A stretch of 64,000 bases of DNA, from the NCBI RefSeq assembly GCF_006345805.1, contig NC_042999.1, positions 115,072,001 through 115,136,000 on the forward strand, read 5' to 3'. Source of the stretch: Octopus sinensis. Taxonomy: Eukaryota. The position numbers and the translations under genes were made by a program. The notes under the pieces were generated by a model. It saw only the letters and a list, made by a program, of their open reading frames with translations. It was not told where the DNA came from and made no database searches. This document shows, piece by piece, positions 28,301 through 31,300 of the stretch (positions within the stretch are counted from its first letter, which is position 1; each line of letters opens with the position of its first letter).

Positions 28301-31300
28301 ACACACTCACACACATACATGTGCGTGTATTTAATCCGGTTTCAATTCATGCTTGAATACATTTCCACTTCATATACTTCACTAATCACACTGTGACTCA
28401 CTATTTTATTCTTCCTAATGTTTTAAGCTACCAAGAGAAGACATCGAGAAACAACTCTAGTACAGCGCCATAGCGTTCTATATCCAGGGAGGGGCATGCT
28501 GATTTTTAAAATTTACGTGTGTGTGTGTGTGTGGTTGATTGATTAGAATTATGGCTATAAAAAAAATCCTAATTTGGCTATGCCAATTTGTCCGTTCCTT
28601 TCCTATCCCGCATAAGCCCTCCCCACTCCCACTGCATGGCCTGCCGCTTCCTATGACACACACTGCATCAGATAATGTAGTTCTCCATACTTCTGAAAAG
28701 ATGGGATGATTACGGCTGGAGGACTTTTGATATCTGCTTGATCACGCCTGGAATTAACAACCATCAACTAGCACAGTTGTCTCCCTTGCATTCGTTTTAT
28801 TTATTCTTTTACTTGTTTCAGTCATTTGACTGCGGCCATGCTGGAGCATCGCCTTTAGTCCAACAAATCGACCCCAGGACTTATTCTTTGTAAGCCTAGT
28901 ACTTATTCTATCGGACTCTTTTGCCGAACCGTTAAGTTACGGGAACGTAAACACACCAACATCGGTTGTCAAGAGACGGGGGTGAAGAGACAAACACAAA
29001 TACACAAATATATATCATCATCATTTAACGTCCGATTTCCATGCTAGCATGGGTTGGACGGTTCGACCGGGGTCTGGCAAGCTATGGAGGCTGCACCAGA
29101 CTCTAGTCTGATTTGGCAGTGTTTCTACAGCTGGATGCCCTTCCTAATGCCAACCACTCCATTATATATATATATATATAACGTAAAAAGCATTACTCAC
29201 CTCGCCTGTGCTTGTGCCTTATAAAAAGCACTAAGTCCACACTGCTGAGTGGTTGGTGTTAGGAAGGGTATCCAGCTGTAAAAATCCTGCCAAAACTGTC
29301 ACAGAAGTCTGGTGCGGGCTTTGGTCTGGCCAGCATGGAACTAAATGATGATGATGATATATATATATGTATGTATACGATGGGCTTCTTTCAGTTTCTG
29401 CCTACCAAATCAACTCACAAGATTTTAGTCAGCCCGAAGCTATAATAGAAGACATTTGCCCAAGGTGTTACACTGTGGGACTGAACCCAGAATCTATTTA
29501 TTTATCTTTTTATCTGTTTCAGTCATTGGTTTGCAATCATACTGAAGGGTCTAATGGAGCAAATTGACCCCAGTATTTATTTTAAAGCCTGATACTCATT
29601 CCGCTGATATCCTTTGCCAAACCACTAAGTTATGGTGACATAAACAAGCCATTAATGGTATTCAAACAGTAGTGGGAAGCAAAGACTCACACCACCATTT
29701 GACAACCGGTGATAGCGTGTTTATGTCCTGTAACTTGCCAGTTCAGCAAGTTACAGGAGTTGATTCTACCTGTTTTATATGTTCAAACTGGCCAGATCCA
29801 GCCTCTCACACCTACCCTACAATATCTTTCTAAAACACCAGTTCTCAAGCAGTGGTAGGGGACAAACACAGACACAAAAACACACACATAGACATATATA
29901 TATATGTAAAAGATAAAATGAATGGTTTTTACCTGGTAGCTTACTGGTAAAGCATGATCACTTTCACAGTGTTCATTAAGTATCTGGTTAATGAGAGATG
30001 GAAAATGCAAGAGTTTTTATTAATCATGACAATTGTTTCGATACATCTAGCATTGATCCCTCATTGGTGGGATACTTAACAACTGATTCAGGAGCATCCA
30101 ACAGTGTAGATGTGTTTCTTCAGGTGATAAACAGATACAACTTGTTAAAATAACAGTTCCGCAATGTATGTTCTCAGTTCTTGTGAAGTAAAGCAGCAAA
30201 TTAAAGGATATAACTTCATTTATATAGAAGATCAATTATAAAATAAGCTATATCCTTTAATTTGCTGCTTTTCTTCACAAGAACTGAGAACATACATTGC
30301 AGAACTTATTTTAATGTATTGTATTTGTTTATCCCCTGAAGAGACACATCAGCACTGTCAAATGCTCCTGAACTAGTAGTTAGGCATCCTACCTGTTAGG
30401 GATCAATGCTAGATGTGTCAAAACAATTGTAGTGATTAATAAAAACTCTTGTATCTTCCATCTCTCATTAACCAGATATATATATATATGTATGTGTGTG
30501 TGTGTATATATATATATATATATATATACATATATATATATATATACATATATATATATATATATACATATATATATATATTATATATATATATAATATA
30601 TATATATATATATATATATATATATACAGAGTTGGCCAAAAGTCACCCAACAGTAAATCAAAATTCCATAAATCATCATCCTGTAATTCTGTTCTGGCAC
30701 AAATGGAAAAATGAGTTGCTCAAGAAGGACTTCAGTTTGAAGTATTTTCGTGATGTTTCATATTTTGATGCTTTTATTAAATTCATTCAGTTGTTAAACA
30801 TAAATAAATCTTGGAATTAAATGGTTTTGATTTACTGTCAAGTGACTTTTGGCCAACTCTATATACGTATATATATATATATATATATATATATATGATG
30901 GGCTTCTTTCAGTTTCCATCTACCAAATCCACTCACAAAGCTTTGGTCAGTTCAAGGCTATAGTAGAAGACACTTACCCAAGGTGCCATGCAGTGGGACT
31001 GAACCCAGAACCAAGTGGCTGGGAAGCAAGCTTCTTACCACACAGCCACACCTGATGATATCATATACAAACTCTTAATTACATTCCACAGAGTAACCTG
31101 CATATTAAAATGTTGAATATGACCTTACTCAAAATATATTATATACAACTGCTTCATGCAAATTTATTTACTTTATATTTCAGTTCTAACGGATGAAAAT
31201 TTGCTGAAGCTGCTGATGACTGATGATGTTGTTATTGGAACAGAAATCATCAATTTAATTCGTACCATATTGCGCCTAAATTGGTATGGTTTATTCTTCG

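Follow-up and report, generated by a model that had tools for sequence, protein, structure and literature searches.

Penelope-like elements are the closest described relatives of the locus reported here, and comparisons with them refer throughout to the consulted sections of the papers cited. In the Hydra clade, which is defined by RWK, DKT, CxCX5C, the lack of CCHH, CxxC and CxH around E and N, and a (TA)n target (Craig et al. 2021, PMC8557442), elements have a hammerhead near the 3' end, a 5'-truncated inverted copy and a tail at one end, and Hydra-1_Obim from Octopus bimaculoides combines a C-terminal GIY-YIG domain with DKT, CxCX5C, no CCHH and a (TA)n target (PMC8557442). Inverted pLTRs and a one-sided tail have been published before (PMC8557442; PMC3846280), and Penelope insertions are known with a head-to-head inverted pLTR, a tail on one of the two, an AT-rich target and two RT start sites (PMC3846280; PMC11167929). 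Metazoan Penelope pLTRs contain minimal hammerheads (Cervera and de la Peña 2014, PMC4209133), type I ribozymes with a short stem I, G10.1-C11.1 and a palindromic stem/loop 3, for which a dimer model and dual opposite-strand motifs 100–700 bp apart have been described, and non-LTR retrozymes likewise have a type I hammerhead and a Penelope origin (Cervera and de la Peña 2020, PMC7229834; bioRxiv 10.64898/2026.07.22.740005).

The octopus family described below shares these traits with each system and departs from them in several respects. Hydra-1_Obim is, by eye, a separate family with a different 3' region and ribozyme, and the Hydra hammerheads in File S2 of the same paper (PMC8557442) have CUGA and a loop 2 of 3–10 nt, in contrast to a 77-nt stem II domain and C4 in our family. 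In the metazoan pLTR hammerheads helix II is 6–8 bp and the core variant is U3-A8 rather than C4, and the consulted text describes no long branched or bulged stem II extension like that of the octopus motifs (PMC4209133). The tail of 30–40 nt in published Penelope insertions (PMC3846280; PMC11167929) compares with about 70–85 nt in the octopus family, in which we have in addition counted how regularly a pair of arms carries one tail. Retrozymes are non-coding head-to-tail arrays with a hammerhead per unit, whereas the locus studied here is a head-to-head stump of a coding element. A viroid variant with U4C (PMC3088659) has the same core substitution as the octopus family.

The locus lies in a 64,000-nucleotide stretch of the Octopus sinensis genome (GCF_006345805.1, contig NC_042999.1, positions 115,072,001 to 115,136,000), hereafter the window, in whose own coordinates all unlabelled positions are given. 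An IQCB1-like protein (P0007, named from Octopus vulgaris) aligns exon by exon with the + strand of the window, and the preliminary description of a palindrome within IQCB1 intron 4, with a hammerhead motif on each strand, was borne out by this exon mapping and by alignment of the arms. The features are as follows.

27006..31183, + strand: IQCB1-like intron between coding exons 4 and 5, from protein mapping, with GT..AG ends.
29490..29906, + strand: left part of a common short repeat (repeat families D8 and D9), whose internal microsatellite took the insertion.
29911..30246, − strand: left arm, in which a 5'-truncated Hydra-clade Penelope-like element is represented by its 3' end, pLTR plus tail; its left boundary is approximate and merges into TA repeats.
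29911..29980, − strand: tail of about 70 nt, identical in sequence to the start of the element's 5' UTR.
30023..30128, − strand: hammerhead copy, CUGAAGA..GAAAC-AAUU-GUC, core intact (U4, C17).
30245..30246, no strand: head-to-head junction with a 2-nt overlap, from the window sequence against the family alignment.
30245..30478, + strand: right arm, an inverted copy of the same pLTR that stops at a short 3' end and has no tail.
30331..30436, + strand: hammerhead copy on the pre-mRNA strand, CUGAAGA..AAAAC-AAUU-GUA, with G12A at 30420 and A17.
30476..30626, no strand: (TA)n-rich sequence forming the right-hand side of the target site, whose left-hand side is at about 29894–29906.
30862..31053, + strand: right part of the same common short repeat (repeat families D5 and D6).

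The inverted arms (29981–30225 and 30245–30478) are complementary at 213 of 247 aligned positions with 4 gap columns, and arm against arm they differ at 30 of 231 columns (~13% divergence). Two arms of ~240 bp had been proposed with a very short spacer between them; the arms are as described, and the supposed spacer is further element sequence of the left arm, which meets the right arm over the 2-nt overlap, while at its other end the left arm extends ~70 nt past 29981 as the element's tail. The short end of the right arm passes straight into TA repeats. Parts of both arms are matched, with 0–2 differences, by contigs from three sequencing runs that are probably DNA, none of which crosses the centre; because of these matches and the differences between the arms, the palindrome is not an assembly artefact. 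We take the short repeat split around the palindrome to be SINE-like. The same microsatellite also holds a 235-bp MITE-like element (30627–30861) with terminal inverted repeats of ~20 bp and TA flanks, presumably of Tc1/mariner type. Elsewhere in the window, a 175-nt inverted pair (22528–22702 and 44451–44625; 97% identity, 21.7 kb apart) has one copy in IQCB1 intron 2 and the other past the last coding exon.

To what element the arms belong was read from its other copies. A genome search with one arm gave 1993 first-look candidates, of which 40 were scored, with 46 listed matches, and 30 loci were fetched. The copies have a common 3' end and variable 5' stops, and the longer ones reach a GIY-YIG domain and then an RT domain upstream of the pLTR; two of them (L031 and L085) are near full length (~3.1 kb) but decayed, with RT and GIY-YIG motifs in order. 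No intact ORF of this family was present among 21 long loci. Its RT piece is 41–44% identical to intact proteins of 774–947 aa, namely P0002 and P0003 (from Argonauta and another assembly) and the ORF of L226, a young family in the same genome. Pfam, a PDB sequence search and one protein search returned no match for the ORF pieces. Read by eye, the motifs are those of Hydra: an RWK region (decayed to QWK and WWK in the two copies read), DKT, a CxCX5C linker, no CCHH, no cysteine pair inside GIY-YIG, CxxC and CxH; most 3' ends of the family, by inspection rather than tally, enter TA repeats. Motifs and TA target agree in placing the family in the Hydra clade of Penelope-like elements, to the extent that motifs read by eye can. 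A Neptune or Naiad identity was considered and dropped after the motif comparison.

RT and GIY-YIG in one ORF, the mark of EN+ Penelope elements, occur in the family and not in the window's stump, and the structural marks of this group (5' truncation, an inverted 5' copy and a tail at one end) are present as well. Because its longer copies bear RT and GIY-YIG ORFs and its relatives have intact proteins, the family was evidently autonomous. The preliminary description was right to link the palindrome to Penelope and to a dispersed repeat family, which the genome-wide copies with these ORFs support; its claim that the family is non-autonomous is contradicted by the same ORFs.

In the type I motif of each arm, the two 9-nt strands of stem II flank an insert of 59 nt, and the stem/loop 3 of each is the palindrome ACAATTGT, so that the type I architecture, unusually long stem II and palindromic loop 3 originally noticed are seen in both arms. 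The arm consensus originally given stands for the core motif but not for its 3' part, GTC-gtgat, which is in neither arm (left GTC-ATGAT, right GTA-GTGAT); the cleavage-site base H17 differs between them, being C17 in the antisense copy (30028) and A17 in the sense copy (30431). The defects reported earlier were confirmed and can now be specified: the sense copy has lost the core G as G12A and has further mismatches in stem I (30334) and stem II (30351), and the antisense copy keeps its core while stems II and I are disrupted at their bases by G10.1A, G11.3A and G1.1A. Both copies in the window are, as read from these changes, broken ribozymes, and a descriptor scan found no intact hammerhead motif in the window. 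An Rfam scan of the window region (E up to 10) gave no hammerhead family and only sub-threshold miRNA-type matches.

Core position 4 sets the family apart. At positions 4–5, 87 exact matches comprise 37 CG, 32 TG, 18 CA and 0 TA, and 128 aligned segments comprise 47 CG, 46 TG, 27 CA, 1 TA and 7 others. Counts of this kind are what decay of an ancestral CpG would leave; in all likelihood the active element therefore carried C4 rather than U4, and the CUGA of both window arms probably arose by CpG decay from a family CCGA. The predominance of TG over CA (32 versus 18, p = 0.065) leaves some room for a source sub-lineage with U4, yet CG is common in the window's own subfamily. The family consensus thus most likely has C where CUGANGA/GAAA/NUH had been expected to have U, with the remaining core positions kept across the alignment. 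Lineage-level variation falls on N7, on H17 (C or A) and on one G-C to G-U pair; lineage-variable columns number 0 of 28 among the other core, stem I and stem III columns versus 29 of 148 in the flanks (p = 0.005), in a sample biased towards this outcome, as 60 of the fetched loci came from search patterns that fix those core and stem columns. A viroid variant also carries U4C, which reportedly lowers activity considerably in vitro yet suffices in vivo (cited in Perreault et al. 2011, PMC3088659).

The long stem II is widespread in the genome. With a spacer of 52–72 nt the exact pattern had 10,822 matches (23 in a reversed control), and with 73–95 nt it had 2,708 (43 in the control), a total of 13,530 long-stem-II matches (66 in controls) versus 965 with a spacer of 8–36 nt (45 in the control), or about 14 to 1, for a search that covered these three spacer ranges and motifs with a near-palindromic loop 3. 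Among the matches listed, 24 of 30 fetched have a stem I of at least 4 bp. C4 forms account for 683 of the 10,822 (control 12) and come mostly from two young families, one adjoining a Hydra-type ORF (L275) and the other in tandem units of ~590 bp (L277); at least three retroelement families have U4C as their lineage state. In another array (L283, G000:C1:70559500-70569000), a long-stem-II motif recurs in every one of 15 units, which are ~600 bp long and 98.7% alike. A retrozyme-like array of ~550-bp units with a short-stem hammerhead was also observed (G000:C2:27922322-27935037), and some retrozyme-like arrays lie in head-to-head blocks.

An Argonauta endonuclease search revealed young Hydra-type families with stop-free frames of up to 992 aa. 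One of them (L226:4498-7338, G000:C17:13314000-13323999) has a complete 947-aa ORF with asparagine-rich inserts; its 3' UTR measures ~1.5 kb and its inverted copy 3023 bp, and this family is probably active. A further family with a Hydra-like ORF and a long repeat-rich 3' region (L231, L240 and L241) had no hammerhead match within the fetched flank. The ribozymes of the young families have a CUGA core, differing stems and a stem II domain of 53–63 nt; domains of 54–60 nt fold as bulged hairpins. Across eight of their motifs, 97.7% of pairs are kept and five pairs have substitutions in both partners, among them the shift from AATT to GATC in loop 3; none of 500 shuffles reached the observed pair conservation, for a small related set whose structure was drawn from the same sequences. 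Stem covariation is therefore present in these related young families, while neither arm in the window has intact stems. Rfam (E up to 0.5) found no hammerhead in L234 or L227, with sub-threshold miRNA-type matches as its only output, and it is probable that the long stem II defeats its models.

More than 13,000 long-stem-II motifs are, from their sequence, likely to be self-cutting. In an active element the ribozyme would work as a dimer, in which two palindromic loop-3 halves are predicted to pair in trans, and would cleave transcripts of tandem copies at GUA or GUC. The extended stem II of 53–77 nt would be a lineage trait of these octopus elements, and a stem II domain of 53–95 nt may have a function of its own, by making a tertiary contact or by serving as the place where the element's protein docks. 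Monomer folds of one intact and one young copy gave alternative hairpins with z-scores that were not significant. In an old and a young family (L161:1975-2095, − strand, and L224:4552-4651), the 3' side of stem II can form a hairpin with the GAAA core, and it is possible that this predicted local hairpin is an off state of the monomer. A broader reading, that Hydra elements and their tandem derivatives carry an undescribed hammerhead in more than 13,000 copies, with a functional stem II of 53–95 nt whose presence permits recurrent U4C cores, and that their insertions record twin priming at two RT start sites, one for each DNA end, we offer tentatively and with some doubt.

The head-to-head arrangement is a recurrent product of the family, found in 19 of 97 sampled loci after place-duplicating loci were dropped. 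The tail was scored in pairs whose two arms both extend into the 3' region. One tail and one short end are present in 12 of 13 unselected pairs (the thirteenth has an interrupted arm) and in 17 of 18 pairs chosen for having a tail, and in young families the same layout is seen in 7 of 7 pairs, with arms of L226 at 99.97% identity over 3023 bp. A tail is present in 16 of 73 solo copies. The palindrome is accordingly a known kind of head-to-head insertion product and no unit of its own. We hold with considerable confidence that an autonomous Hydra-clade element left its 5'-truncated 3' end here in two copies, within a (TA)n tract, likely by one insertion and likely followed by neutral decay. The element's endonuclease would have nicked both strands of the TA tract in IQCB1 intron 4, and each 3' end would have primed reverse transcription of element RNA, one cDNA starting at the distal site (the tail end) and the other at the proximal site (the pLTR end); both cDNAs would have halted early and then been joined head-to-head over the 2-nt overlap, likely in one event with later decay likely neutral. 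Poseidon protein, when purified, cleaves both strands and extends them, and it starts reverse transcription at two adjacent sites, which define the tail (PMC11167929); twin priming with two start sites, one per DNA end, is what we infer here. For the origin of inverted arms, self-priming is a published alternative (Arkhipova et al. 2013, PMC3846280). Arms that abut point to twin priming instead, since twin priming on one RNA leads to a tail arm that starts where the short arm ends, as in 8 of 17 tail/short pairs. No target-site duplication is readable at the locus amid the TA repeats. Tail-to-tail pairs around a TA tract were also seen (L029 and L234), one with arms 98% alike. The tail (29930–29945, − strand) contains CTACCAGGT, which also occurs at the Hydra-1_Obim 5' end and, in Penelope-16_HM, downstream of the ribozyme (supplement of PMC8557442); it is possibly a conserved cis signal or a splice donor.

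The two arms could in principle come from two independent insertions, or have been copied from two distinct element RNAs bound in a single dimeric protein complex. The difference at H17 between the window arms would fit two templates, and H17 differs in 5 of 17 pairs versus 5 of 59 at other transversion sites (p = 0.039); the window arms, moreover, are not sisters in a FastTree tree, which is poorly resolved, and three copies are marginally closer to the left arm than the right arm is. The strict pairing of one tail with one short end and the seamless junction are not expected from independent insertions, and the window arms have in common a rare G-to-C change (4 copies) and a 7-nt deletion and agree at 22 of 23 lineage-diagnostic sites, versus 60% for random pairs. 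The two-RNA version would fit a single twin-primed insertion and change only the template. Taken together, we regard two separate origins or templates as highly improbable. Sister arms differing between A and C at H17 were seen in the window (30028/30431), L049, L066, L067 and L094; such differences stood at 5 of 10 pairs at first, at 5 of 17 with more pairs and at 0 of 7 in young families. That this hypervariability is a trace of reverse transcription over a cleaved and re-joined site is a weak lead, and doubtful.

The preliminary description had gone further and saw in the locus a non-autonomous element with a ribozyme, in which the copy able to cut the pre-mRNA had been disabled, a loss that would be due to selection. 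The sense copy does lack G12, tandem and apparently non-coding long-stem-II arrays do exist in other families (L283, with its ~600-bp units), and retrozymes are reported to be depleted in Xenopus introns (bioRxiv 10.64898/2026.07.22.740005); against this, the window's family has ORF-bearing copies, and the antisense copy, which is unable to cut the pre-mRNA, is broken too. G12 is preceded by C11.1, making a CpG, and 64 exact matches comprise 34 CG, 15 TG, 14 CA and 1 TA, so that G12A occurs in 15 of 64 (23%) and, among aligned segments, in 34 of 154. Selection is not needed to explain the loss of G12, because G12A is a common CpG transition among copies, and in the sense copy it reads as ordinary CpG decay. 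Core, stem I and stem III are all kept in just 12 of 119 copies. The sense ribozyme would also pair with the antisense arm, which is transcribed earlier, and so would be unable to fold; sequestered in this hairpin, it would never have needed disabling. We regard selective disabling as extremely improbable.

The ~240-bp arms are predicted to form a long intronic hairpin, which folds at −319 kcal/mol on either strand. Coleoid cephalopod repeats undergo heavy A-to-I editing. Given a 240-bp hairpin with a longest uninterrupted run of 28 pairs that would form in the pre-mRNA, action of ADAR or Dicer on it is plausible from the predicted fold, and incidental editing, as distinct from co-option, is likely. 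Co-option of the hairpin, such that ADAR or Dicer acting on it would alter IQCB1 expression, would be another matter: the arms are 13% diverged, their mismatches on the sense strand show no G-U bias (12 G-U versus 10 A-C), and such hairpins are routine in the family, at the same 19 of 97 loci. We consider co-option extremely unlikely. Contigs of four probable RNA runs gave short pieces only, mostly from other copies. The palindrome is a decayed leftover and likely harmless.

The insertion type, clade and ribozyme class of the palindrome are thus already known, and the locus is an ordinary decayed one; what is new is the long-stem-II/C4 hammerhead, as a variant, and the window family, as a family of a known clade. 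We found no long-stem-II or C4 octopus hammerheads in the searchable literature. Lünse et al. 2017 reportedly described many Penelope hammerhead variants, and that study, Arkhipova 2017, the figures and supplements of Cervera 2014, Repbase or Dfam may already contain the long-stem-II variant. For O. vulgaris, a repeat annotation from 2026 names 31 Penelope-like families as recently active, and the word 'ribozyme' is absent from its main text (PMC13282606). A published relaxed core search used spacers of 7–17 nt, with half-cores at 35–50 nt (PMC8557442). Since the octopus long-stem-II motifs lie beyond these published spacer limits and beyond Rfam at the tested loci, cephalopod ribozyme counts may be too low, and reports of 'no ribozyme' for some Penelope clades are possible underestimates. 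Young full-ORF copies with near-identical arms provide a system for studying the role of the ribozyme in Penelope elements, and equally for studying how inverted arms and tails arise.
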